Shown piece after piece: positions 1,576 to 42,614 of a stretch of DNA of 64,000 nucleotides. The DNA is from Candidatus Kaiserbacteria bacterium. Its GTDB lineage: Bacteria; Patescibacteriota; Minisyncoccia; Phycocordibacterales; Phycocordibacteraceae. Numbering within the stretch: the first letter of the stretch is position 1; each line of letters begins with the position of its first letter. The position numbers and the translations under genes were made by a program. The notes under the pieces were generated by a model. The model saw only the letters and a list, made by a program, of their open reading frames with translations. It did no database searches and had not been told where the DNA came from. The DNA lies in NCBI GenBank assembly GCA_963813065.1, contig CAWEXP010000004.1, positions 7,267 to 71,266 of the forward strand. Reading direction: 5' to 3'.

Positions 1576-4430
1576 AGGTTGAGGATTCTGCCTGGCACGT
1601 ACACTACTCTCTTAGGCTCCTTCCCCGCAAGTCCTGCGGCGACTGCCGGCAAAGCCTTCGCCGCCGCGAGCGCATCCTCCTGCGAGGCATCTGCCGAGAG
1701 CGAAATGGAGCCTTTCCGCTTGCCCGCAACCTGCACCACGACCTCGACTTCGTTCTCGACGAGGAGCGCGGGATCGTAGGTCGGCCACGGCGCCCGATGT
1801 ACACTGCCCTCGCCTCCTATTTTCTCGAACAAATCTTCCGCGAGATGCGGCGCGAAGGGCGCGAGCATGATGACGAAATCTCTGAGTACGAGTGGGGATA
1901 TCTTACTTTGCATCCCCTCGGCTTCAAGGTAATTCAAGAGTGTCATGAGTGCGGCAATGGCTGTATTGAATTTAAAGCGGTCGCAATCTTCGGCAACTTT
2001 CTTCGCCGTCTTTGCGAGCGCGCGTTGGATGTTTTGATTCTCGAAGTCGGACACGGCGTGTCCGACTTTTTCAATCAAACGCACGATGCGGTCCAAAAAC
2101 TTTCGCATGCTCGCGACGCCGTCGAGATTCCAGGGGTAGCTACCCGGCTCATTGTAGGGGCCGATGAAGGCGAGATACACGCGCACTGCGTCGGCGCCGT
2201 ATTCGCCCACCATGTCATCGGGGTTGATCACATTCCCCTTCGACTTACTCATTTTCTGTCCATCAGGACCGAGGATGATGCCGCGATTGAAACGCTCGTG
2301 GAAAGGTTCGCTGGTCGGCACGAGCGCGAGATCGTAGAGCGCTTTGTAGAAGAAGCGCGCATAGAAGAGATGCATGGTGGTATGCTCGCTCCCGCCCGAA
2401 TAGCGGTGCACCGGCAACCACTTTTTCATCAGCGCGAGATTGGAGAACTCGTTCACATTCTTCGGGTCGAGATAGCGGGTGAAGTACCACGAAGAATCAA
2501 CGAACGTATCGAGTGTGTCGTACTCGGGCGTCCAGCCTTCGCCGAAAAGTTTCGTCACGCGCTCGCGCAATTCATTTGACGACGCGAGCGGCGACTTCCC
2601 CGTCGGCTTGAAGTCGACATCGGTCGGCAAGAGCCACGGCAGGTGCTCGGCCGGTATCGCATGCGGCTTGCCCTCTGGATCGTAGACGATGGGGATCGGG
2701 CAACCCCAGTAGCGCTGGCGACTCACGAGCCAATCGCGGAGACGGTACTGCGTGGTCATCTCCCCGCCCGCGAGTGCAACGATCTCTGCCGCTACCTCGC
2801 GATTATTTCTACCAGTGAATTCACCGGAATTAATGAGATACCCGTCTCCAGTCAGAGCAACCTCGGTATGGAGTAATTGCCACATCTGCTTCTGGTGCGC
2901 AGGAACGAGACGATTGAGGACTTCATCTTCGCTCACCCATACGAGCGTATGCTTCGCGGATTCAGACGTATCAATCGCGCCTTGTTTGCTCAACGAGTCC
3001 ACTTCGGCCAAAAGTGCGTAAGCGTGTGCGCAACGATTTTCACCTTTGTGCGAGGCGCAATACCGTGCGGCTGTAATCCACTGCGCACGATGTATGATGC
3101 GAATGTCTTCAAGTGCGGCCTCTTCGCGGATCTCCATGAGCGCCGCCTCTCCGGGCGTTTGTCCCGGCTCGATGCCTCCCATGATCGCGGTTGTGATGCC
3201 TTCGAGCGTTCCGTGCCAATCCAGAAGAGCGAACTTGCCCGTCGACTTGTCGCGCAGATGCACAATCACGGTATCGCGCTTCACTTCCTTAAACTCGGGA
3301 CGTGGCGGATTGCCGGGATCATCGGCACACGGCACCACGACCTGGACGACGGGAATGTTGAACTTCTGCGCAAATTCGAAATCGCGCTCGTCGTGCGCAG
3401 GGACGGCCATGATGGCGCCCGTGCCATAGGAGGCGAGCACGTAGTCAGCAATAAAAATTGGAATCTCTTCTTTCGTCGCGGGGTTAATCGCCGTCACGCC
3501 CTTGAGCTCGACGCCGGTTTTCTCTTTATGCTCTGAACGCTCGCGCTCAGTTTTTTTCTGGGTCGCCTCAATATACGCTTCGATTTCTTTTTTATTTGAA
3601 ACGGCGTCCGACAGGGACGCAACGAGGGCGTGTTCGGGTGCCAGCACGAGATACGTCGCGCCAAAGAGCGTATCGGGTCGCGTGGTGAAAATCTCAATGG
3701 GCTGGACATCGGATGTCCTAACTTCGAATTTGATTTTCGCGCCCTCCGACTTTCCGATCCATGCGCGCTGAGCGTCTTTTATTTCGTCACGCCACGGCAG
3801 AGGGTCGAGATCTTTGAGGAGTCGCTCGGCGTACTGTGTGATTTTCAAAAACCATTGCGTGAGCATTTTTTCTTCGACCGGCGTGCCGCACCGATCGCAA
3901 CAACCATCTTTGACCTGCTCGTTGGCGAGCACGGTTTGATCCTTGGGGCACCACTTAACCGCCGCAAGGCGTCGCTCGGCGAGTCCGTGTTCGAAGAATT
4001 TTGCGAAGAGCCACTGCGTCCATTGGTAATACGAGGGATCGCAGGCGACGACCTCTTTGCTCCAATCGAAAGACGCACCCATCGAGGCGAGCTGGGTCTT
4101 CATCCGCTCAATGTTGGCGAGTGTCCAGGCCGAGGGGTCAGCGCCATGCTTGAAGGCCGCGTTCTCTGCCGGCAGGCCGAACGCGTCGAAACCAATCGGG
4201 AACAACACGTTCTTGCCCTGGAGGCGCAGGAAGCGCGCATAGATATCGGTGACCGCGAAGGCGTACCAGTGCCCGATGTGGAGGTCGCCCGAGGGATACG
4301 GGAACTCGACGAGCAGGTAGTACGGCTCTTTCGCCTCGTCTGCGAGATCGCATTCGTTCAGCTTCAGCTCTGCCCATTTCGCTTGGGCTTTTTTTTCAAT
4401 TTCTTTGTGGTCGAATGTCATGCCTAGCAA
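1566..4430 (-). CDS. leuS: Leucine--tRNA ligase
   Basis: 954 aa. HIGH motif (SGDLHIGHWYAF) and KMSKSKGN present. Full-length class I aaRS with the typical LeuS N-terminus. Confidence 0.95.
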   Translation of the reverse strand: MLGMTFDHKEIEKKAQAKWAELKLNECDLADEAKEPYYLLVEFPYPSGDLHIGHWYAFAVTDIYARFLRLQGKNVLFPIGFDAFGLPAENAAFKHGADPSAWTLANIERMKTQLASMGASFDWSKEVVACDPSYYQWTQWLFAKFFEHGLAERRLAAVKWCPKDQTVLANEQVKDGCCDRCGTPVEEKMLTQWFLKITQYAERLLKDLDPLPWRDEIKDAQRAWIGKSEGAKIKFEVRTSDVQPIEIFTTRPDTLFGATYLVLAPEHALVASLSDAVSNKKEIEAYIEATQKKTERERSEHKEKTGVELKGVTAINPATKEEIPIFIADYVLASYGTGAIMAVPAHDERDFEFAQKFNIPVVQVVVPCADDPGNPPRPEFKEVKRDTVIVHLRDKSTGKFALLDWHGTLEGITTAIMGGIEPGQTPGEAALMEIREEAALEDIRIIHRAQWITAARYCASHKGENRCAHAYALLAEVDSLSKQGAIDTSESAKHTLVWVSEDEVLNRLVPAHQKQMWQLLHTEVALTGDGYLINSGEFTGRNNREVAAEIVALAGGEMTTQYRLRDWLVSRQRYWGCPIPIVYDPEGKPHAIPAEHLPWLLPTDVDFKPTGKSPLASSNELRERVTKLFGEGWTPEYDTLDTFVDSSWYFTRYLDPKNVNEFSNLALMKKWLPVHRYSGGSEHTTMHLFYARFFYKALYDLALVPTSEPFHERFNRGIILGPDGQKMSKSKGNVINPDDMVGEYGADAVRVYLAFIGPYNEPGSYPWNLDGVASMRKFLDRIVRLIEKVGHAVSDFENQNIQRALAKTAKKVAEDCDRFKFNTAIAALMTLLNYLEAEGMQSKISPLVLRDFVIMLAPFAPHLAEDLFEKIGGEGSVHRAPWPTYDPALLVENEVEVVVQVAGKRKGSISLSADASQEDALAAAKALPAVAAGLAGKEPKRVVYVPGRILNLVV

Positions 4431-4468
4431 GGTTAAACCTTAAGAATATGCATCAAGGTTTAACCTTG

Positions 4469-5002
4469 CTAGTCGCGGAAGCGCTTCCAACCAATCCAAA
4501 CCAGCGCGCCGAGTCCGATTGCGGCGATCAGCAAACGAATCCACTCTCCCGCCGTCCCCCAGTACTGCGCCGAGGCGATGACAAACGCGATGACGCCGCC
4601 ATAGGAGAGACCGCTCGACACGATTGAGGAACCAATCGGCACGAAGCCAATAATGAGCGCGAGGATGCCGAGACCGACCATGAGCACAAAGGCATAGAGA
4701 TTGTGTTGGTCGCTCGCCGCCTGGTAGAGCGGCTGGCACTTTGCGTATAGATCGCAATAGCCTGTTGTGGCCGGAGCGGCGCCCTTGGCAGGAAGTGGCG
4801 CAGGAGCATTCTCGGTCCAGACACCGCCCGCAGAATCGCAAGCAGAAGCGGTCAGCGTCGTGGACACATTGCTCGGGCAGTAGGTGTTGTAATCGGGCGC
4901 CGGCAGAGCGAGGCTGGTGAGGACACCAAAGAAAATATTCAAAATGACGACGATGCCGACGAGGAGTGCCCACCGGACAAACTTTGGGTGTTTGTTTTCC
5001 AT
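4469..5002 (-). CDS. Hypothetical integral membrane protein. Start placed at MENKHPKF; leaderless.
   Basis: Hydrophobic helices. ATG at 5002..5000 lies 6 nt downstream of TATAAT. The upstream residues in the ORF track (YNPP) are simply the promoter read in frame. Confidence 0.45.
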   Translation of the reverse strand: MENKHPKFVRWALLVGIVVILNIFFGVLTSLALPAPDYNTYCPSNVSTTLTASACDSAGGVWTENAPAPLPAKGAAPATTGYCDLYAKCQPLYQAASDQHNLYAFVLMVGLGILALIIGFVPIGSSIVSSGLSYGGVIAFVIASAQYWGTAGEWIRLLIAAIGLGALVWIGWKRFRD

Positions 5003-5006
5003 CGGC

Positions 5007-5016
5007 GGATTATACC
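5007..5016 (-). promoter_or_regulatory. Extended -10 TGGTATAATCCGCCG immediately 5' of the ATG; leaderless transcript predicted.
   Basis: TATAAT then 6 nt then ATG. Same motif as at 1565 and 26931. Confidence 0.45.
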
Positions 5017-5083
5017 ACAATAGATAACACAAAGACCACAGGGAGGCCGTAGCCTTTGTGGTCTTGAAATGGATCTCGCCGCG

Positions 5084-5557
5084 CTAGTCCGCAAACGGCG
5101 AGTAGTGATGTGGACTGCCGTTGCAACTGTGGACCTCCGAGGTACCTGCATAGTTGGTCGGCGCAGGTTCTCTTGCGAACGCTCTCCGGGATTCCAGTGT
5201 ATCGGCGACAAGCCGATATCGATGAGGCTGACCCGTACAGTGATCGTAGGCAATCGCGAATTGATCGCTGGTGCCTGTAGCGGAGGTGCTGGCAGAATCC
5301 GACGCGCCGATCAGATTGACCGCAACGCCGTTGGACTCGGCAACCGTACGGCCTTTTGGCGGATAGATAAGATGCCAAGAGTCATCCGCGGCAACTTTCG
5401 CTTGTGCGATAATCGCCGCCGTCGTGCCGTTCACCTTATGAGGGGTGAACCGATCGGCCGAATAGCGAGCGAGGCCCACAACAGCGAAAGTGGCCAGAGC
5501 AACCACAATGATTGGGAACGCAACCGAACGCTTCTTAGGTTTTGAAGAACTGGTCAT
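5084..5557 (-). CDS. Hypothetical membrane-anchored or secreted protein
   Basis: N-terminal hydrophobic segment PIIVVALATFAVVGL. No recognisable domain. Confidence 0.4.
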   Translation of the reverse strand: MTSSSKPKKRSVAFPIIVVALATFAVVGLARYSADRFTPHKVNGTTAAIIAQAKVAADDSWHLIYPPKGRTVAESNGVAVNLIGASDSASTSATGTSDQFAIAYDHCTGQPHRYRLVADTLESRRAFAREPAPTNYAGTSEVHSCNGSPHHYSPFAD

Positions 5558-20803: not shown

Positions 20804-21115
20804 TTAGAATACGGCTCCTTTACTTGATTTTATCATACCTCCGCACTTCGAGCACTGGTCTCCTGACTCCAAAAAAGACCCTATTTCGCCGCAACGGGGG
20901 CATTTCGTATCGTTTTCCATCATCTCGACTACCTGCCCGCAACCAGCACAGTACCGCTCGGAGGTGTATCGAGCGACATACTGCTCGTTTGCCTGTCCTA
21001 CAGGCACCTTGGCGAGGTTCGGCGGCGTATCCGGTTTCCACTCTGGCACGTCCTGCACGAGGCGCACACGGAAGTTGCAGGACAAGTTCTCGCAGCGGAG
21101 GATGAGCGAGTTCAT
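20804..21115 (-). CDS. Zinc-ribbon protein (103 aa), last gene of a 4-gene translationally coupled cassette.
   Basis: CAGCG...CPRCG...CSKCG. ATGA overlap with the upstream gene. Confidence 0.4.
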   Translation of the reverse strand: MNSLILRCENLSCNFRVRLVQDVPEWKPDTPPNLAKVPVGQANEQYVARYTSERYCAGCGQVVEMMENDTKCPRCGEIGSFLESGDQCSKCGGMIKSSKGAVF

Positions 21116-21447
21116 GGCTTCGACTCGTCTTCAATCGCCTTTCGTCCTTCCTTCACTTTGTCCTCAAAATCATGGCGTGCGAGCAGGTCGAAGAAGCCGA
21201 CCATGTCGTTGTCCACGATAGACGTATCAGCCGAGCCGCTCGGCTTTGCGACGAGCCGCTCGTGCTCCAAATCGTGTTCAAGTATCGTTGCGGTGCTACC
21301 GATGTCGTCCGACCCGGTGCGCTTCATAAGCGAGAGAAGCCACCCGGCAACGTACTCCCTGTTCTTCGCGGCTATGGGGTACAGATTTGGAAAGTCTCTC
21401 TCGGTAAGGTCGACGCCCAAGATGTTGATGGTCGCGTGCCGCGTCAT
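21112..21447 (-). CDS. Hypothetical protein (about 111 aa, start MTRHATIN).
   Basis: ATGA overlaps at both ends (21112-21115 and 21444-21447). The ORF-track N-terminal extension is R/S-rich and probably not translated. Confidence 0.35.
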   Translation of the reverse strand: MTRHATINILGVDLTERDFPNLYPIAAKNREYVAGWLLSLMKRTGSDDIGSTATILEHDLEHERLVAKPSGSADTSIVDNDMVGFFDLLARHDFEDKVKEGRKAIEDESKP

Positions 21448-21626
21448 GCGAGTCCGAGAAGATGCGTAATGAGCGCTATGAACACGACTGCGAGACCGAG
21501 AACGAGCACCGCTATGGCTGCTGGCACGAGACCGGCGAAGACCATCACGAGATGGTTGAACCAACTGGCGAGCGTCATGCGCTTGCCGTCGTCTTCCCAC
21601 ACCTCGTACCAGTGCTGCGTACTCAT
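21444..21626 (-). CDS. Small membrane protein (60 aa).
   Basis: One or two hydrophobic helices. ATGA coupled to both neighbours. Confidence 0.3.
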   Translation of the reverse strand: MSTQHWYEVWEDDGKRMTLASWFNHLVMVFAGLVPAAIAVLVLGLAVVFIALITHLLGLA

Positions 21627-22180
21627 GGCTTCATCTTCTGCGTTCGCCCCTTACCATCGACCACGAAGTCGGGGGCGTTCCTGTCGTTCCATCGCTCGAC
21701 CGTTCGCGCCTTTCGGATTGACCAGACGATGAGTGCGCCTCCGAGTAGGAAGATGAAAACACTCACACCATAGGATGCGTCCGTAGAGTTGGTCTTTATG
21801 ATGCCGAGTCCCATGAGCACGAAGACAAAGCCGAGCAGCCGTAAACTCTGTATCGTTTTCGTAGCATCCTCCATTCGCCGCTGCACATGCAATCGCTTTT
21901 CGGCTGGTGATTTCAACTCTTCGAGAACCGACGCCCGGCGTTGTCGATGAAGCGCGTATCTTACGAGAATGACGGAAGCGATAACCGAACCGAGTATGAA
22001 AACGAGTACCCACGGGTCAGTCCAGTGCCAGATGAGCGTAGAAAGCACGAGTGCTGCGGCGTAGCAGACAAGTGCGGTGTTGGAAAAAGGTTTTGGTAGT
22101 TTGAGTTCGCTTGGGCGCATGGGATTGCGCCGGGCGGTCGCAGAGAACCCGCCACGGGCTACGGCTTGCGCCGTACGCAT
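21623..22180 (-). CDS. Membrane protein with four predicted TM helices (start may be MRPSELKL at 22120).
   Basis: Two hydrophobic hairpins separated by a basic helical linker. First gene of the coupled cassette. Confidence 0.4.
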   Translation of the reverse strand: MRTAQAVARGGFSATARRNPMRPSELKLPKPFSNTALVCYAAALVLSTLIWHWTDPWVLVFILGSVIASVILVRYALHRQRRASVLEELKSPAEKRLHVQRRMEDATKTIQSLRLLGFVFVLMGLGIIKTNSTDASYGVSVFIFLLGGALIVWSIRKARTVERWNDRNAPDFVVDGKGRTQKMKP

Positions 22181-22368
22181 CAGTTTCCCAATGCGGCACG
22201 TAATGCGACCCCATGACGGGTTCTCTACGCATTACGTGTCTCCCGACCATGCCACCGTTACCGATGGTTTAGGTCGTCGCCCTTGCGGGCTATTCGTGTG
22301 TCTTCCCCTCACAAGAAGGGTTACTGATAAGTGTAGCGCATTTGCTACCAAGTGCTACCAAGTGTTCA

Positions 22369-35516: not shown

Positions 35517-36872
35517 TTACCCACGCAAGCCGCGCGAGCGAGCGCGACGATGCCGCGCGAGTGAGAAACGATGTGCCTCAGCATTCGCCCGCACCGCATC
35601 AACCTCGGTGACGCCCGCGAGGCGTGCGCCGATTACTTCGCGGGGGCGATGGCGCTCATCCTTGACCACTGCCGCCACAGGAATCGAGATGCCCGCGTCG
35701 GCGAGCACCGCCTCGGCCGCCTTCTTCTGTGGCTTGCCGCCGTCCACAACGATGGCACTGGGCAATTCCCACTCTGGGTGCCCGAGTCGACGTGAAAGAA
35801 TTTCGCGCAATGAGGCGATGTCGTTATTCAAATTCCGCCCATGTTTGGACTTCGTAAGTCCCTTAGCGCCCGGACTTACGAAGTCCCCGCCCCGAATGCG
35901 AAAAGTCCGGTAGTCTTTTTTTGCCGGTACGCCATCAATCAGCACAGTCATCACACCGACCGCATTGGTACCCGCGAGATGCGCGGTATCGTAGGCTTCA
36001 ATCCGGTATCCACTATTCCCTGCTATAGCAGATTTTTGTGGATACCTCCCCGTCTCACGACTCTCATCTTTAATAAGAGAGACGTCCTGGATATGATCGA
36101 GCGCAAAGAGTTGTCGTCGCGCGGTAGCCGCATCCTCGAAACGCTCTTCGCGCGCGGCAAGAGTCATCTCGCGCATGAGCGTCTTGCGCAATTCTTTGCC
36201 GCGCCCAGCCAGAAACAGCGTGACATTGCGAATCGACTTCAAATACTGCTTTCGATCGTAGTCGCGGGGATACTGCCCTATCTGCGTATTGAATTCTATT
36301 TTTGCGCGGTGATGTTTGTTGGTGGCGATGACCGGTTTCTCGGTATCGAAGAATGGGAAAATGCGTCGAATGAGTCGCAAGCCTTCGCGCAACTGCGGGC
36401 CGGAGGGATAGGGGCCGAAAATCGCCCGCAAGGCGACGCCTTGGGAAGTTGCCTTTAAGGCGTCGCCTTGAATACGGCGATTCTTAAAATCGAGATCTTT
36501 GCCGCGCACGACGAGTACGCGCGGAATGTCTTCTTTCGTGATGACGGCGTAGAGAAAGGTCGAATCATCTTTGCCATCGCTGTTCGCTGGCGGCATATGT
36601 TTCTTAATCAACACCGCCTCGCGCACCAGCGCCTCGAGCACGGTCGGTGTCGGCTCGTAGGCGAGACCGTCAGCCCGCGTCACCATGTCCACGATGCGCG
36701 GCCCGCGTGTGGCGATCAGGTCGTCGTCGAAATAGCTTCGCACGCGATCGCGCAGGCTGGTCGCCTTGCCCACATAGAGAATCTTCCTGCCCTGTTTAAA
36801 AAAATACACACCCGGCACGTCGGGCAGATCATATTTCTTGAGTTCGGCTCGTTCCATATCGTTAGTGTGCAA
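35517..36872 (-). CDS. uvrC: Excinuclease ABC subunit C (GIY-YIG, UVR and RNase-H-like endonuclease domains; no C-terminal HhH). Carries two in-frame palindromic-element insertions.
   Basis: VPGVYFFKQGRKILYVGKATSLRDRVRSYF (GIY-YIG). MREMTLAAREERFEDAATARRQL (UVR). RIEAYDTAHLAGTNAVGV. Extra IQGDALKATSQGVALRA and GDFVSPGAKGLTKSKHGRN segments versus canonical UvrC. Confidence 0.85.
   Translation of the reverse strand: MHTNDMERAELKKYDLPDVPGVYFFKQGRKILYVGKATSLRDRVRSYFDDDLIATRGPRIVDMVTRADGLAYEPTPTVLEALVREAVLIKKHMPPANSDGKDDSTFLYAVITKEDIPRVLVVRGKDLDFKNRRIQGDALKATSQGVALRAIFGPYPSGPQLREGLRLIRRIFPFFDTEKPVIATNKHHRAKIEFNTQIGQYPRDYDRKQYLKSIRNVTLFLAGRGKELRKTLMREMTLAAREERFEDAATARRQLFALDHIQDVSLIKDESRETGRYPQKSAIAGNSGYRIEAYDTAHLAGTNAVGVMTVLIDGVPAKKDYRTFRIRGGDFVSPGAKGLTKSKHGRNLNNDIASLREILSRRLGHPEWELPSAIVVDGGKPQKKAAEAVLADAGISIPVAAVVKDERHRPREVIGARLAGVTEVDAVRANAEAHRFSLARHRRARSRGLRG
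35847..35886. repeat. Palindromic element type A pair (GGACTTCGTAAGTCC, 10 nt spacer, GGACTTACGAAGTCC) inside uvrC, in frame.
   Basis: Inverted 15-mers. Left flank cccatgtt is shared with the uvrA and uvrB copies. Encodes ...PGAKGLTKSKHG... Confidence 0.8.
36430..36469. repeat. Palindromic element type B pair (AAGGCGACGCCTT, 14 nt spacer, AAGGCGTCGCCTT) inside uvrC, in frame.
   Basis: Two inverted 13-mers, each a small hairpin. Encodes IQGDALKATSQGVALRA, which is absent from canonical UvrC. Confidence 0.7.
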
Positions 36873-37664: not shown

Positions 37665-37730
37665 GACCGGGAGCAATCCCGGTCTTTTCTTTATCTAAAA
37701 GTTAGGACACGGCGTGTCCTAACTTTTTTA
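37665..37730. terminator. Two tandem terminator hairpins. The second (gttaggacacggcgtgtcctaac) is bidirectional and overlaps the uvrA stop.
   Basis: Hairpin 37665-37684 plus T run. Hairpin 37701-37723 flanked by an A run and a T run. Confidence 0.65.
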
Positions 37731-40439
37731 TTTCTTTAATTTCCGCTTCAACACTTTCGCGAGATACTGGCCGGTGTAGGAGTGCTCGTTGTCGGCGACT
37801 TCTTCCGGCGTGCCCTTCGCGATGACCTTGCCACCCTTCACGCCACCCTCAGGGCCGAAGTCGATGAGATAATCGCTCGACTTGATGACATCGAGATTGT
37901 GTTCGATAACCACGACCGTGTTGCCGCGACGCACGAGCTCCTGCAAAATTTCTATCAGCTTGCGCACGTCCTCGTAGTGGAGGCCGACCGTCGGCTCGTC
38001 GAGGAGATAAATCGTTTTCATCACCATCGGGCGATAGAGCTCCGAGGCAATCTTCACGCGTTGGGCCTCGCCACCCGAGAGCGTCGTTGCCGATTGGCCG
38101 AGGGTGAGATATTCCAAGCCGGTCGCCTTCAGAGATTCGAGTCGGTCAGAGATCGCGGGAATGTCTTTGAAAAATTCAAGCGCTTCCTCAACCGTCATCT
38201 GCAGGACTTCATAAATATTTTTGCCATGGAAGCTGACTTCGAGTGTCTCTTTCATAAAGCGCTTGCCCTCACAGACATCGCACGTGACGTACACCGTCGG
38301 GAGGAAATGCATCTCGACCGCGATCTGCCCGTTGCCCTGGCAGGCCTCGCAGCGGCCGCCCGGGACGTTGAAGGAGAAGCGGCCCGGCCGCCAGCCGCGC
38401 GCACGCGCCTCCGAGGTCGCGGCGAAGAGGTCGCGAATATGCGTCATCGCGCCGGTGTAGGTTGCGGGATTGGAGCGCGGCGTGCGCCCAATCGGCGACT
38501 GATCGATCAGCACGGTGCGACCGACGTACTCGGTGCCGGCCATCGAGGCGACGTGCTGGAGCTTGGCTTCCCTCTTCGCGAATCGCGCCGCAAGATTTTT
38601 ATGCAAAATATCGTAGAGGAACGTCGACTTGCCACTTCCGGAGACGCCCGTGATGCAGACCAGCTTGCCGAGCGGCACATCCACATTTTGATTCTTCAGA
38701 TTGTGGAGTGTCGCACCACGAATCATAATCTTGCCCTTCTCGCTTTCGCGGCGATCCTCGGGTGTCGGGATTTCTTTTTCGAGGCGCAAATAATCGAGCG
38801 TAACGGAGCCCGAGTCGTTGTGCGGCGTGGTCAGGAGGTCGTCGAGCCAGCCTTGCAGCGACGACCTTCCCGCCGTGCGTGCCCGCGCCCGGACCAATGT
38901 CCACAATGTAGTCGGCGGCGTAGATAGTATCCTCGTCGTGCTCGACGACCACGATGGTGTTGCCGAGCTCCTTCAGCGCAAGCAGAGTCTTGATGAGGCG
39001 ATCATTGTCGCGCTGATGGAGACCGATGGTCGGCTCATCGAGCACGTACAAGGCACCCGTGAGCCCCGGCCGAGCTGGGACGCGAGACGGATGCGCTGGG
39101 CCTCGCCGCCGGAAAGGGTCGCGGCCGAGCGATCGAGGGTGAGATAGTCGAGACCAACATTGAGCATGAAGGTGAGGCGGCTGTTGATCTCGCGCAAGAT
39201 TGGTGCGGCGATATCTTTTTTCATTTCCGAAAGTTCGAGCGAATCGACAAACTTCTTCGCGTCGCCGATGGACATGTTCACAAAGTCAACAATGTTCACA
39301 CCCAGCCCATGTTCGGACTTCGTAAGTCCGGATTCCGAAGAGGACTTACGAAGTCCCCCCATTCCCTCCGACTTCAAGTACACCCGCAAAGCCTCGGGGC
39401 GCAGGCGCTTGCCGAGACAGACCGGACACACTTCCTCGGAAAAAAGTGACTCGGTGCCGAGACCGTTACAGGCCGGGCACGCACCATAGGGAGAATTGAA
39501 GGAGAAGAGTCGCGGCTCCACCTCCGGAAATGAGGCACCGTCCTCGGGGCAAATAAATTTCGACGAGAGCGTCTCGGTCGTGCCGTCCGCGTGTTTAATT
39601 TTTACCAACCCATCAGACTCTTTGAGCGCCAGCTCGAGCGCCTCGGAGAGTCGTTCACGCGCGCCTGCGGTCGAACGCGAGAATTCAGAAACGAAAATAG
39701 TGTCGACAACCGCGTCGATGTCGTGACGCTTGTTGCGGTCGAGTTCGATCTTCTCGCGGAGCGACTGCGATCTTCCCATCAATCATCACTTTTTCATATC
39801 CCTTGCCGAGAAGGTCGTAGAGCAGTTGGTAGTACTCGCCTTTGCGACCGACGACCACCGGCGCATAAATAGTCACTGCGCTCTTGTCGACAACGACCAC
39901 ATCTGCCAAGGTCGAACCTGAGAATTCGGATTTAAGGTTCGACCTTGACGCCGTGCGTCGACGCGCGTGAGCACCATTTTGATCATTTCTTCTTTCGACA
40001 ATTTTACAATCGGGACATCGTGATGGATGCAGTACGCCTGGCCCGCGCGCGCATAGAGGACGCGGAGATAATCGTAAATCTCGGTCACCGTCGCCACCGT
40101 CGAACGCGGATTGTTGGAACGACTTTTTTGGTCGATAGAAATCGCGGGCGAGAGGCCGGTAATCTCATCCACGTCTGGTTTCGCCATCTGGTTGAGGAAT
40201 TGTCGCGCGTAGGCGGAAAGCGATTCGACATAGCGACGCTGACCCTCGGCAAAAATAGTGTCGAACGCGAGCGAGGACTTCCCCGAGCCCGAGAGGCCGG
40301 TGATGACCGACATCGCCCCGCGCGGCAATTGTACGTTGATATTTTTCAAATTATGGGTGCGCGCACCCTTCACCACGAGCCAGTCGCTCCCGTGCTTGTG
40401 TTCGTGTATCTCCTTCGCGCTTTGTTTTTTGGTTGCCAT
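37728..40439 (-). pseudogene. uvrA: Excinuclease ABC subunit A with at least four frameshifts (five overlapping ORF fragments). One in-frame palindromic-element insertion.
   Basis: Fragments 39873-40490 (MATKKQ...[25 protein letters not shown]), 39685-39909, 38973-39782 (Zn finger CPVCLGKRL..., [16 protein letters not shown]), 38599-39051 ([13 protein letters not shown]...GPGAGTHGG) and 37728-38906 (second ABC domain). Confidence 0.8.
39315..39356. repeat. Palindromic element type A pair (GGACTTCGTAAGTCC, 12 nt spacer, GGACTTACGAAGTCC) inside uvrA, in frame.
   Basis: Encodes GGLRKSSSESGLTKSEHG inserted between the VYL... and ...MSIGDA segments, relative to E. coli UvrA. Flank cccatgttc. Confidence 0.8.
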
Positions 40440-40495
40440 GTATGGTAATCGCCCGTCCGTGGCGGGACAGGTTCGGGCGCATTCTAGCATTGAAC

Positions 40496-42614
40496 TTAGC
40501 TTCCAGAAAGCGGCTTGCGCGTGCGACCTTTTTTCTTCGGGCCCGTGCCTTCAAGTTTATAAATCTCGTCACGGATGAGTGCGGCCGTTTCGAAATCAAG
40601 TTTCTCGACCGCTTCCGCCATCTCGTCGCGCTTCTGCTTGATGAAGGCCGTCGGGTCATCGCGGTACGCAAGCTTGTCGAGCACGAGGAGTTCGTCAATC
40701 GTCTTCTGGTGCTCGGTGCGCATCGACGCGGCAATGTCGTGAATCTCTTTGTGGATGGTCTGCGGAGTGATGCCGTGCGCCTGGTTATAGGCGAGCTGGA
40801 TGGCGCGACGACGATTCGTCTCCCCAATCGCCTTCTCGAGAGAGCCGGTCATGACGTCGGCATAGAGAATCACTTTACCGAGTACGTTACGAGCGGCTCT
40901 GCCGATGGTCTGGATGAGCGACGTCTCCGAGCGCAGGAAACCTTCTTTGTCGGCGTCGAGAATGCCCACGAGCTCCACCTCGGGCAAATCCAATCCCTCG
41001 CGCAGGAGGTTCACGCCGACGAGAATGTCGAACTTCCCTTTGCGGAAGTTGGTGAGAATGTCGATGCGGTCAATCGTCTTTACGTCGCTGTGGAGGTACT
41101 CAGCTTTTATTTTTTTCTCGCGCAAGAATTGTGCCAAGTCCTCGGCCATCTGTTTGGTGAGCGTGGTCGCGAGCGCTCGGCCACCGCCCTTGATGGTCTT
41201 CTCTGCTTCTTCAATAAAATCCGCCACCTGTCCAATGTAGGGTTTCGTAAATCCTACATGCTCGGAATGTGGGGACTTCGTAAGTCCGGACATGGGCTCG
41301 GCTCCTTCAGTTACTGGACGAATCACCAGTTCGGGATCAATGAGACCCGTTGGGCGAATAATTTGTTCGACCACTTGCTCGGAGTGCGCCTTCTCGTACG
41401 GCCCCGGTGTCGCGCTCGTGTAGAGTGCTCTGACCAATCCGATTTTCAAATTCTTCGAAGCGAAGCGGACGATTGTCGCGCGCCGAAGGGAGGCGGAAGC
41501 CGTATTCGACAAGCACATCCTTGCGCGATTTGTCGCCCGCATACATGCCGCCAATCTGCGGGACGGTGACATGCGATTCGTCGATGACCGTTAAGAAATC
41601 TGCTGAGCCGTCTTTTTTATGAGGAAAGTATGACAAAAGAGTGTGCGGCGGTTCGCCGGATGCGCGACCGTCGAAGTGGCGTGAGTAATTCTCGATACCG
41701 CTCGTGTAGCCAATCTCGCGGATGAGCGCGAGGTCGTGGAGCGTGCGACGCTTCAAGCGTTCGGCCTCGAGCGGTTTCTCCTCGCGCTTAAACTTCGCGA
41801 GCTGTCCTTCGAGCTCAAGCTTGATGTCTTCGATAGCGCGCACACGTTCCTTTTCGCTACTCACGAAGTGCTTGGCCGGAAAGACGAACACCGAATCGGG
41901 CTCGACCACTTTAGCGCGCGAGACCGGGTCGAGCTGGTGCACCGAAGAAACGACATCGCCATCGAAGGTCGCGCGATAAATCACCTTTTCGTTCACCGGC
42001 ATGAACTCGACCGCATTCCCCACTGCGCGGATCTTGCCCGGCTCGAGGTCGGCATTGGTCCGCTCGAAATAAATCCGGATGAGCTGGCGAATCAATCCTG
42101 CGCGACCACCTTCAATCGCCTTGCCGCGCACAATCTTCACGTGCACTTTCTCATATTCCTCGGGCGAGCCGAGACCGTAAATCGCGGAGACCGACGCGAC
42201 GATAATCACATCCTTGCGCGTGAGTAGCGCTTGCGTCGCCGCGTGGCGGAGACGGTCAATCTCGGCGTTAATCATCGCCTCTTTCTCGATGTACGTATCG
42301 GAGTGCGCAATGTACGCCTCGGGCTGGTAGTAGTCATAGTAAGAAACGAAATAGTGCACCGCGTTCTCGGGGAAAAATTCGCGATATTCCTGCGCGAGCT
42401 GAGCTGCGAGCGTCTTATTGTGCGCGAGGACGAGGGTCGGCTTGTCGAAGTGGGCAATAACATTGGCACAGGTGAAGGTCTTGCCCGAGCCGGTGACGCC
42501 GAGCAGAGTCTGGTGGCGCATGCCCTTCTCTAACCCCTCCTCGAGTGCGCGAATGGCCGCCGGCTGATCGCCTGCGGGCTGGTAGGGGCTCTGCAACTTG
42601 AAATTGCGCGACAT
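40496..42614 (-). pseudogene. uvrB: Excinuclease ABC subunit B with one +1 frameshift near 41430-41445. One in-frame palindromic-element insertion.
   Basis: N-terminal fragment 41337-42614 (GVTGSGKTFTCANVIA...FEEFENRIGQ). C-terminal fragment 40496-41572 (ALYTSATPGPYE...LVGVNLLREGLDLPEV...UVR tail). Junction ggtcagagcactctac. Confidence 0.8.
41240..41285. repeat. Palindromic element type A pair in uvrB (degenerate GGTTTCGTAAATCC plus GGACTTCGTAAGTCC, same orientation), in frame.
   Basis: Encodes MSGLTKSPHSEHVGFTKPYI between PVTEGAE and QVADFIEE. Flanked by ATGTAGG/CCTACAT and ATGTGG/GGACAT inverted ends. Confidence 0.75.

Follow-up and report, generated by a model that had tools for sequence, protein, structure and literature searches.

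A palindromic doublet in uvrC

The DNA analysed here is a 64-kb stretch of a Candidatus Kaiserbacteria contig (CAWEXP010000004.1), hereafter the window, and its minus-strand open reading frame (ORF) 35517..36872 holds the element with which we are concerned, a 42-nucleotide (nt) inverted doublet of palindromic units inserted in frame into the excision-repair gene uvrC. The uvrC coding sequence (35517..36857, minus strand; 446 aa), assigned from the ORF, its orthologs and Pfam, starts at an ATG, and an alternative start further upstream, a TTG at 36872, would lengthen the ORF. Pfam places a GIY-YIG domain at residues 16–89, a UVR domain at 221–254 and a UvrC_RNaseH domain at 283–408.

The whole insertion (36429..36470, minus strand) has the layout C + unit + spacer + unit + G. 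Unit 1, AAGGCGACGCCTT (36430..36442), is a 6+1+6 palindrome resembling repetitive extragenic palindromic (REP) units; it is the downstream copy on the coding strand and reads (Q)GVAL. Unit 2, AAGGCGTCGCCTT (36457..36469), is the exact reverse complement of unit 1, forms the upstream copy on the coding strand and reads (Q)GDAL. The two are separated by an asymmetric 14-nt spacer, gggaagttgccttt (36443..36456), which on the coding strand is AAAGGCAACTTCCC, where it completes the Leu codon begun in the unit and continues with K-A-T-S. The coding strand thus runs CGC CGT ATT CAA GGC GAC GCC TTA AAG GCA ACT TCC CAA GGC GTC GCC TTG CGG GCG ATT across the element, with the translation R R I Q G D A L K A T S Q G V A L R A I, and the encoded peptide, QGDALKATSQGVAL, is located in a hypervariable loop. 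A first-pass annotation of the window had reported two inverted 13-mers around a 14-nt spacer at 36430–36469, in frame within uvrC; the sequence is as described and the ORF reads RR-IQGDALKATSQGVALRA-IFGPYPSG, with the refinement that the perfect inverted arms are 14 nt long (36429–36442 and 36457–36470; pair I18 of an inverted-pair scan).

The element as a whole is predicted to fold into a single long hairpin, in which the 14-bp stem of the arms is prolonged by a 9-bp outer stem contributed by host codons. In the minimum-free-energy structure this outer stem pairs GGCGAUUUU (36418..36426, downstream on the coding strand, codons (R)-A-I-F) with AGAAUCGCC (36476..36484, upstream on the coding strand, variable codons K-N-R-R), and it includes a 7-nt inverted match of the flanks, AATCGCC. 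The predicted folding energies are −39.8 kcal/mol for RNA (z = −5.9) and −23.8 kcal/mol for DNA (z = −5.3). The earlier description of each 13-mer as a 6-bp hairpin does not hold, as a 6-bp stem with a 1-nt loop is not feasible; on its own, a unit could pair over no more than 5 bp, around a 3-nt loop. The element is beyond chance: perfect 13-nt inverted pairs with gaps of 5–30 nt number 21 (overlapping) at 8 loci of the window, compared with a mean of 0.03 in sequences simulated from a first-order Markov model of the window. An Rfam scan of the window returned no family at the element, and no unpaired GTAG or CGTC tag was seen next to it, CGTC occurring only at the unit centre.

A repeatedly altered loop in UvrC orthologs

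The relatives of the window protein are UvrC sequences of 411–463 aa from Candidatus Kaiserbacteria and other Paceibacteria of the Candidate Phyla Radiation (CPR), one of them (P0001) a 100% match; 38 were aligned and all 120 were inspected. Two spots are hypervariable, the loop between D-F-K-N and R-A-I-[YF]-G-P-F-P-S-G, which accommodates the element, and the site of a second doublet, built of the unit GGACTTCGTAAGTCC (type A). The stretch from DFKN to RAI comprises 17 residues in the window protein and 3 in the shortest orthologs (P0004, P0037 and P0052, all reading DFKNHNFRAI). The excess of 14 aa equals 42 nt, i.e., C + 13 + 14 + 13 + G, and the segment is therefore an insertion relative to these orthologs. 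In the genome of one ortholog with an empty loop (L031), the corresponding DNA is AAG AAC AAT GAT TTT CGA GCG ATA.

The first-pass annotation had taken UvrC to be continuous at this site, which is true of the shortest orthologs but not of the family at large: a lone 5-aa unit (S-Q/D-G-x-x-L) occupies the loop in about half of the 120 orthologs, and many hold other palindromic doublets. An example of the former is L028 (P0009), where the DNA CAGGGCGTCGCCTTG stands next to the R-A-I codons. The latter comprise RFNLKSESSRLNL in at least 12 sequences, KSDFNTNSQKSDFNL, QGDTSRKGVTL and QGDALTQGDAL, as well as AAGGTTCAACCTT-AAATCCGAATCCTC-AAGGTTGAACCTT in L035 (Kaiserbacteria, GCA_016204815.1), the 22-bp perfect arms of which reach into host F-R codons. 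Perfect palindromes of 29 and 23 nt that use host codons are found in L032 and L033, respectively, and partial local duplications in P0044, P0011 and P0089. The nearest ortholog, P0002, has only a decayed, non-palindromic version, while both units are perfect in the window. The comparison with orthologs, which had been proposed as a check, finds the 17-residue stretch of the window protein in none of the 120.

The insertion points of the different unit families are offset by a few nucleotides, which fits better with a permissive loop that has been struck repeatedly than with one exact target. Two syntenic loci, L004 and L020, with about 60% protein identity to the window, both contain different inserts in the same loop, and a comparison at this distance does not define the exact insertion boundaries. 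An AlphaFold2 model of UvrC (mean predicted local distance difference test score, pLDDT, of 64.8, and below 50 in the N-terminal domain) is too poor for placing the insert. Elsewhere in uvrC, the genome encoding P0033 has a doublet GAGGTGTCACCTT..AAGGTGACACCTC at a third position of the gene (L034, 10805–10841), in addition to a three-unit array at the loop.

A dispersed family in CPR genomes

A family search with the pattern AAGGCGACGCCTT-N(5-30)-AAGGCGTCGCCTT in GTDB species-representative genomes (596 Gb; the source genome is not included) retrieved the exact unit pair in 26 stretches, for a chance expectation of about 0.003 (596 Gb × 26 gap lengths / 4^26). Metagenomes of the Joint Genome Institute (JGI) contributed 22 further stretches, and the combined sites represent about 40 distinct flank contexts with the same layout of an inverted doublet with spacer. 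The search for additional unit pairs suggested in the first-pass annotation was in this sense productive, with copies in related genomes from both sources. The hosts are nearly all metagenome-assembled genomes (MAGs) of the CPR, i.e., Kaiserbacteria, Adlerbacteria, Vogelbacteria and unclassified Patescibacteria. Individual MAGs hold up to 8 doublets (8 in JAUSIO01, 6 in VGJQ01 and 3 in CAYHVJ01), and the spacers are genome-specific, which together point to proliferation within genomes.

The doublets fall into two classes, one with asymmetric spacers of 13–16 nt (consensus AACACCAGGGCTCTCC, with genome-specific variants) and one with palindromic spacers of 6–10 nt. Members of the short-spacer class are plain long hairpins that are mostly intergenic or at gene ends. 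Of the 26 long-spacer copies, 22 are intragenic, counting ORFs of 150 aa or more, so that the extragenic location expected of a REP applies neither to most of these copies nor to that in uvrC. As with Rickettsia palindromic elements (RPEs), the insertions are in frame in ORFs of unrelated genes: LepA, an IscS-like desulfurase, TsaE, Fmt, IF-2, an aminoacyl-tRNA synthetase, RecJ, a MurF-like ligase and UvrA. The 22 intragenic copies are oriented without evident preference (10 sense, 12 antisense). Their cores measure 42 nt (11 copies), 39 nt (6), 41 nt (4) or 40 nt (1), hence 39 or 42 nt in 17 of the 22, and 18 are read in the G-D-A-L frame.

No target-site duplication was detected at 38 sites, where the longest direct repeat of the flanks averages 3.5 nt, as against 3.7 nt in shuffled pairings, and the doublet sites yielded no target motif beyond a weak preference for C/A before and T/G after the element. 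A motif common to the uvrC doublet and the type A units, which the first-pass annotation had raised, was likewise not evident. Its distinction between the two holds: they belong to different sequence families with the same doublet architecture.

At the IscS site, the element is identical at 42 of 44 positions between two species with flanks that are only 55–63% identical. Elements so much more alike than their flanks must therefore postdate the genes, have passed between species, or be maintained in some other way. IscS-like genes of three species (L044/L004, L041 and L047/L056) carry the same doublet at the same codon position with 42–43 of 44 nt identical; the flank identity of 55–63% is that of the most distant pair, and the 45 nt downstream of the element are unusually similar (82%). 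The pattern suggests interspecies exchange, repeated site-specific insertion, or maintenance of the element. A separate observation concerns an 8-kb stretch of a Vogelbacteria MAG (L016, JAZDGA010000029.1), which forms a perfect palindrome of at least 3,048 nt per arm with no mismatch around a centre at 4952/4953, exactly at a AAGGCGACGCCTT..AAGGCGTCGCCTT doublet within a TsaE-like ORF; here the hairpin most likely caused the assembly to fold back on itself, and the palindrome would be an artefact.

RayT-like genes flanked by the unit

With Escherichia coli RayT, too distant a query, tblastn found nothing in 307 kb of the window and the loci. Reading of the ORFs beside intergenic doublets revealed, in the Kaiserbacteria contig VGJQ01000023.1 (L017/L059), a 244-aa protein with a Pfam match to PF01797 (Y1_Tnp; E = 7.5e-5, 23.3 bits, cutoff 23). 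A total of 372 homologs were retrieved at E ≤ 1e-5; PF01797 hits are precomputed for many of them, and some are named in their sources as 'REP element-mobilizing transposase RayT' or 'transposase [Candidatus Kaiserbacteria / Paceibacterota / Patescibacteria]'. The sole NCBIfam match is NF047646, REP-associated tyrosine transposase (E ~1e-6). The invariant motifs NHxH and QY[IV]HLNP align with the HUH and tyrosine (Y-x-H-x-N-P) motifs of Escherichia coli RayT. Judged by these matches and motifs, the protein belongs to the Y1_Tnp superfamily as a RayT-like member, and is not a certified RAYT equivalog.

The gene is framed by the same unit that builds the uvrC doublet. At L059/L060, a perfect 52-nt palindrome containing AAGGCGACGCCTT-tatcgata-AAGGCGTCGCCTT lies about 30 nt upstream of the RayT-like gene and a second doublet overlaps its stop codon (L059, 214–265 and 1024–1069). 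An 86%-identical homolog (L061) is flanked likewise, with further GAGGCGACGCCTC hairpins upstream, and a 51%-identical homolog (L062, GCA_016204705.1) has on both sides AAATCCAAGAGGCGTCGCCTCTTGGATTT, a version of the unit in which an A>G and a T>C change compensate each other. Flanking of a RayT-like gene on both sides by unit-built hairpins at these three Kaiserbacteria loci constitutes the signature association of REPs with RAYTs. Upstream of the gene in L061 there is also a 1-kb non-coding stretch (4255–5231) that is packed with hairpins in the manner of a REP cluster; a number of U-type units lie there together with variants (AAGGTGTCGCCTT, GAGGCGACGCCTC and a direct pair of AAGGCGACGCCTT).

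Other doublets in the window and the state of the repair genes

The window holds six doublet-type elements. In addition to the element described above, uvrC contains the type A doublet GGACTTCGTAAGTCC / GGACTTACGAAGTCC in the region of its RNase H domain (35847..35886), encoding GDFVSPGAKGLTKS. A further type A doublet in uvrA (39315..39356) encodes GGLRKSSSESGLTKS. In uvrB, a type A unit (41273–41287) and a degenerate partner, GGGTTTCGTAAATCC (41240–41254), lie within a 19-aa insertion (element at 41240..41287); pairing of the stem survives the changes in the partner (C>T with G>A, plus a G-T wobble). The type A copies of the three genes have in common a conserved extension, [AG]ACATGGGC, after one unit (3 of 3). 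A doublet of the AAGGT family, CAAGGTCGAACCT..AGGTTCGACCTTG with the spacer AAATCCGAATTCTC, is present in uvrA (39907..39947; pair I20). This spacer is identical at 13 of 14 positions to that of the uvrC doublet of L035, i.e., in a different gene of a different genome, which argues for mobility. The sixth element, CTAGCAAGGTTAAACCTT..AAGGTTTAACCTTGCTAG (4424..4472; pair I2), is intergenic, with 18-bp perfect arms and a 13-nt spacer, and is placed directly upstream of the ATG (4422) of a minus-strand ORF of 954 aa; it has the CAAGG..CCTTG frame in common with the uvrC and uvrA doublets.

Five of the six doublets thus reside in uvrA, uvrB or uvrC, which occupy about 10% of the window, a count that refers to this one window. 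The arms of the AAGGT doublet span 41 nt, which is not a multiple of three, and the reading frame of uvrA shifts within the element. Compared with the closest relative, L029, uvrA (37728–40490) has four frameshifts, inside 39907–39947 and near 39785, 39070 and 38862, which alternate between −1 and +1 so that the frame is regained twice, and uvrB (40496–42614) has one near 41430–41490. The genes for TGT, an FKBP-type protein and UvrC are intact. The frameshifts represent either real pseudogenisation of excision repair or local sequence errors.

Outside the repair genes, two palindromes, GCCGAGCCGCTCGGC and ACGAGCCGCTCGT, that are nearly identical and agree in their central base follow each other in direct orientation with 7 nt between them (21230–21263). 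They lie inside the overlapping ORFs 21112–21600 (minus) and 21172–21732 (plus), and may be another small repeat type. The window further contains an Rfam match to LOOT RNA (22160–22275, minus strand; 84 bits, E 2e-14) and seven tRNA genes between 26274 and 33281.

Origin of the uvrC element

Systems of the REP/RAYT and IS200/IS605 types work on hairpins of single-stranded DNA, and their target is not duplicated. We consider it probable (roughly 0.65) that the uvrC element is an intragenic REPIN, i.e., a REP doublet forming a hairpin, that was mobilised in trans and was kept because it preserves the frame in a tolerant loop. On this reading, two inverted 13-nt REP-type units (AAGGCG-W-CGCCTT) and a short spacer would constitute a non-autonomous hairpin family of about 40 bp that multiplies in Paceibacteria genomes. 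The mobilising enzyme would likely be a RayT-like Y1 tyrosine transposase (HUH, IS200-type) encoded elsewhere in such genomes, and the clade found here is the candidate for moving these elements. The source genome itself would be expected to encode a RayT-like gene with AAGGCGWCGCCTT hairpin flanks, and the uvrC copy probably arrived by transposition. The lack of a target duplication and of an orientation bias fits enzymes that use single-stranded hairpin DNA.

Most insertions would land in genes because these genomes are almost entirely coding, and the survivors would be those that keep the frame, are free of stops and add small polar loops (Q-G-D-A-L ... K-A-S-P-L or Q-G-V-A-L) to tolerant protein surfaces. 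Such a filter would yield the lengths of 39 and 42 nt, the bias towards the G-D-A-L frame and the recurrent use of the same loops. In uvrC, the copy would have entered the hypervariable loop after the GIY-YIG domain, one that has been colonised repeatedly in other lineages, and would be translated as 14 extra residues. The first-pass annotation had proposed a general mechanism that generates in-frame palindromic insertions; the generality is borne out by a REP/REPIN family linked to RayT-like transposases, but the mechanism is not in itself frame-preserving. With 18 of 22 copies read as G-D-A-L, 17 of 22 cores of 39 or 42 nt and a 41-nt doublet accompanied by a frameshift in uvrA, frame preservation and the G-D-A-L reading look like an outcome of selection and not of the insertion mechanism. 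Translational bypass or removal at the RNA level was set aside, since the intragenic copies keep the frame and lack stops, for which plain read-through is explanation enough. A DNA-uptake sequence was ruled out, the unit occurring only twice in 64 kb.

Several observations weigh against a REPIN mobilised in trans. The unit of the uvrC doublet has no second location in the window, and no RayT homolog is encoded there. Matches of the RayT-like protein to curated models are weak, with 25–30 bits for NF047646 against an equivalog cutoff of 80 and a Pfam score at the threshold, and the PDB yielded no match to the family in either sequence or profile searches. At the RayT-adjacent hairpins, no unpaired GTAG/CGTC tag was seen. 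The doublets that flank the RayT-like genes have palindromic spacers of 6–8 nt, whereas those of the intragenic copies are asymmetric and 13–16 nt long, and the link between the two classes rests solely on the common 13-mer. The window spacer resembles the consensus AACACCAGGGCTCTCC weakly (alignment score −0.5 / −5), and a query with this spacer and its junctions, GCCTTAAAGGCAACTTCCCAAGGC, found 0 matches in JGI metagenomes, which gives no sign that the exact subfamily of the window copy is dispersed. Finally, the many orthologs with a single unit at the same position, some with partial local duplications, make an origin in place possible.

Such a local origin would dispense with a new transposition: an old single REP unit, represented by the S-Q-G-V-A-L codons, would have been inversely duplicated where it stood, through replication template switching or hairpin slippage, the dispersed family being real and the uvrC copy a local derivative. 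Quasi-palindrome correction and template-switch mutagenesis are established replication-error mechanisms that create or perfect inverted repeats in place, and could explain the palindromes that extend into host codons at the uvrC loop. In support of this proposal, about half of the orthologs have one unit beside the R-A-I codons, with CAGGGCGTCGCCTTG in L028 as the DNA-level example; partial duplications or palindromes into host codons occur at the loop in L032, L033 and L035; the 9-bp outer stem of the window hairpin is made of host codons; and the spacer is unique, with 8 of 13 positions in agreement with the unit when the two are compared from the second spacer base onwards. However, template switching cannot explain identical units with related spacers across genes and genomes, nor the association with RayT-like genes. 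Doublets of the 13 + 13–16 + 13 layout are dispersed to unrelated genes, the nearly identical spacers of the AAGGT doublet in the window and the L035 doublet occur in different genes and genomes, and the nearest ortholog retains a decayed, non-palindromic sequence where the window has two perfect units. We regard a purely local derivation of the uvrC copy as unlikely, but still as a serious alternative.

Selection for a nucleic-acid structure, with the hairpin acting in uvrC mRNA or DNA as an attenuator, an RNase site or a protein-binding site, would accord with the high predicted stability (z about −5 to −6), with the maintenance of the palindrome through compensatory differences between lineages, and with the conservation of the IscS-site element far beyond that of its flanks. 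The same element, however, is present in many unrelated genes, in both orientations and at non-homologous positions, three orthologs do without the insertion and the closest one has a decayed remnant, and the site lacks an Rfam match, which makes this explanation quite improbable. A classical MITE (a miniature transposable element with inverted repeats), or the excision footprint of a cut-and-paste transposon with terminal inverted repeats and a target-site duplication, would share with the family its inverted terminal arms, small size and multiple copies; it is very improbable given that direct flank repeats do not exceed background at the 38 sites, that the arms are palindromes in their own right, of the kind found on either side of Y1 transposase genes, and that no insertion sequence with matching ends was found. 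It is more improbable still that the 14 residues were selected for UvrC function, with the palindromic DNA as a mere by-product. The insert does keep the frame without stops, in a loop variable throughout the lineages, but the peptide differs wholly between lineages with DNA palindromy as the common feature, the same peptide appears in unrelated proteins, and frameshifts in uvrA and uvrB render selection on the pathway doubtful in this genome. An assembly or sequencing artefact is hardly credible: hairpins can produce fold-back artefacts, as the palindromic contig L016 with its 3-kb arms illustrates, but an independent Logan assembly (run ERR11630400) has the identical uvrC gene, the ORF is intact, and the same element recurs in dozens of independent assemblies.

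Relation to known palindromic elements

REPINs are defined as inverted REP doublets that form a hairpin, and REPs are associated with RAYT genes (Bertels & Rainey 2011, PMC3116915). The present family agrees with them in its inverted palindromic units and spacer, the formation of one hairpin, the survival of single units as remnants and the lack of target duplications; in related genomes the agreement extends to multiple copies that vary from genome to genome and to a single Y1/RayT-type gene flanked by units. It differs in dimensions, with about 40 bp and 13-nt units compared with REP spacings of 71 and 110 bp in Pseudomonas (PMC3116915), in being mostly intragenic and in frame instead of extragenic, and in its RayT-like proteins of about 225–245 aa, which are distant from curated RAYT models.

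Intragenic REP dimers in uvrABC genes of other phyla are already documented (Di Nocera et al. 2013, PMC3733652). In that work, intragenic single REPs and dimers of the GTAG/CGTC type encode 20–30 residues, with many in genes for excinuclease ABC, UvrD, PolA and RecBCD; the hosts are Opitutus terrae, Thioalkalivibrio and Rickettsia conorii, the excinuclease cases being uvrA of the first two and uvrB of the third, where the elements correspond to RPE-4 and RPE-6 (PMC3733652). The likeness extends to the location in ORFs, the extra residues and the involvement of excinuclease genes, and the five of six window doublets in uvrA, uvrB or uvrC echo the unexplained repair-gene bias. In contrast to the GTAG/CGTC REPs (PMC3733652), the elements described here are free of an unpaired tag, occur in the CPR, and in related CPR genomes are found in many housekeeping genes, not mainly in repair genes. 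What differs from the known cases is thus the host group, the very small size, the missing tag, the mainly intragenic location and the divergent RayT-like clade.

RPEs are the well-established case of in-frame palindromic elements, translated and thought to be tolerated at protein surfaces (PMC10969869). Compared by description, both are palindromic mobile repeats in frame in unrelated essential genes of a reduced genome, but RPEs are about 100–150 bp long with a conserved peptide (PMC10969869), whereas the present elements are REP doublets of 40–42 bp. The comparison can be extended to cyanobacteria. The very small dispersed repeats (SDR) of Nostoc and related cyanobacteria are reportedly hairpin mobile repeats of well under 100 nt that also occur inside genes (Elhai et al., 2008, cited in PMC3116915); by description they are of other sequence families and another host phylum. 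Full-text literature searches aimed at REP, REPIN or MITE-like elements in CPR/Patescibacteria retrieved no report.

Implications for CPR genomes

The findings extend the REP/REPIN-RayT system to the Candidate Phyla Radiation, with REPINs at their smallest, about 40 bp, and mostly inside genes. For some of the many short insertions that set the CPR proteins of single lineages apart, they also offer a concrete and testable origin, namely hairpin mini-elements tied to a RayT-like transposase. Perfect palindromes of this kind inflate apparent protein divergence, can break genes if their length is not divisible by three, and can give rise to fold-back artefacts in MAG assemblies.

A wider reading, which we put forward only tentatively and hold as a whole to be possible but doubtful, is that RayT-driven REPINs of Paceibacteria have shifted from an extragenic to a mainly intragenic life and still are a major source from which essential proteins acquire lineage-specific loop insertions. 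Permissive loops would then be colonised over and over, as in the uvrC loop with at least four unit families across lineages. The elements may spread between species at orthologous sites, as suggested by an IscS element that is 95% identical within flanks of about 60% identity, and they may prefer nucleotide-excision-repair genes, in keeping with five of six doublets in uvrABC and the frameshifted uvrA and uvrB. If this wider reading is true, the elements would add to repair-gene decay and mutator states in ultra-small genomes.

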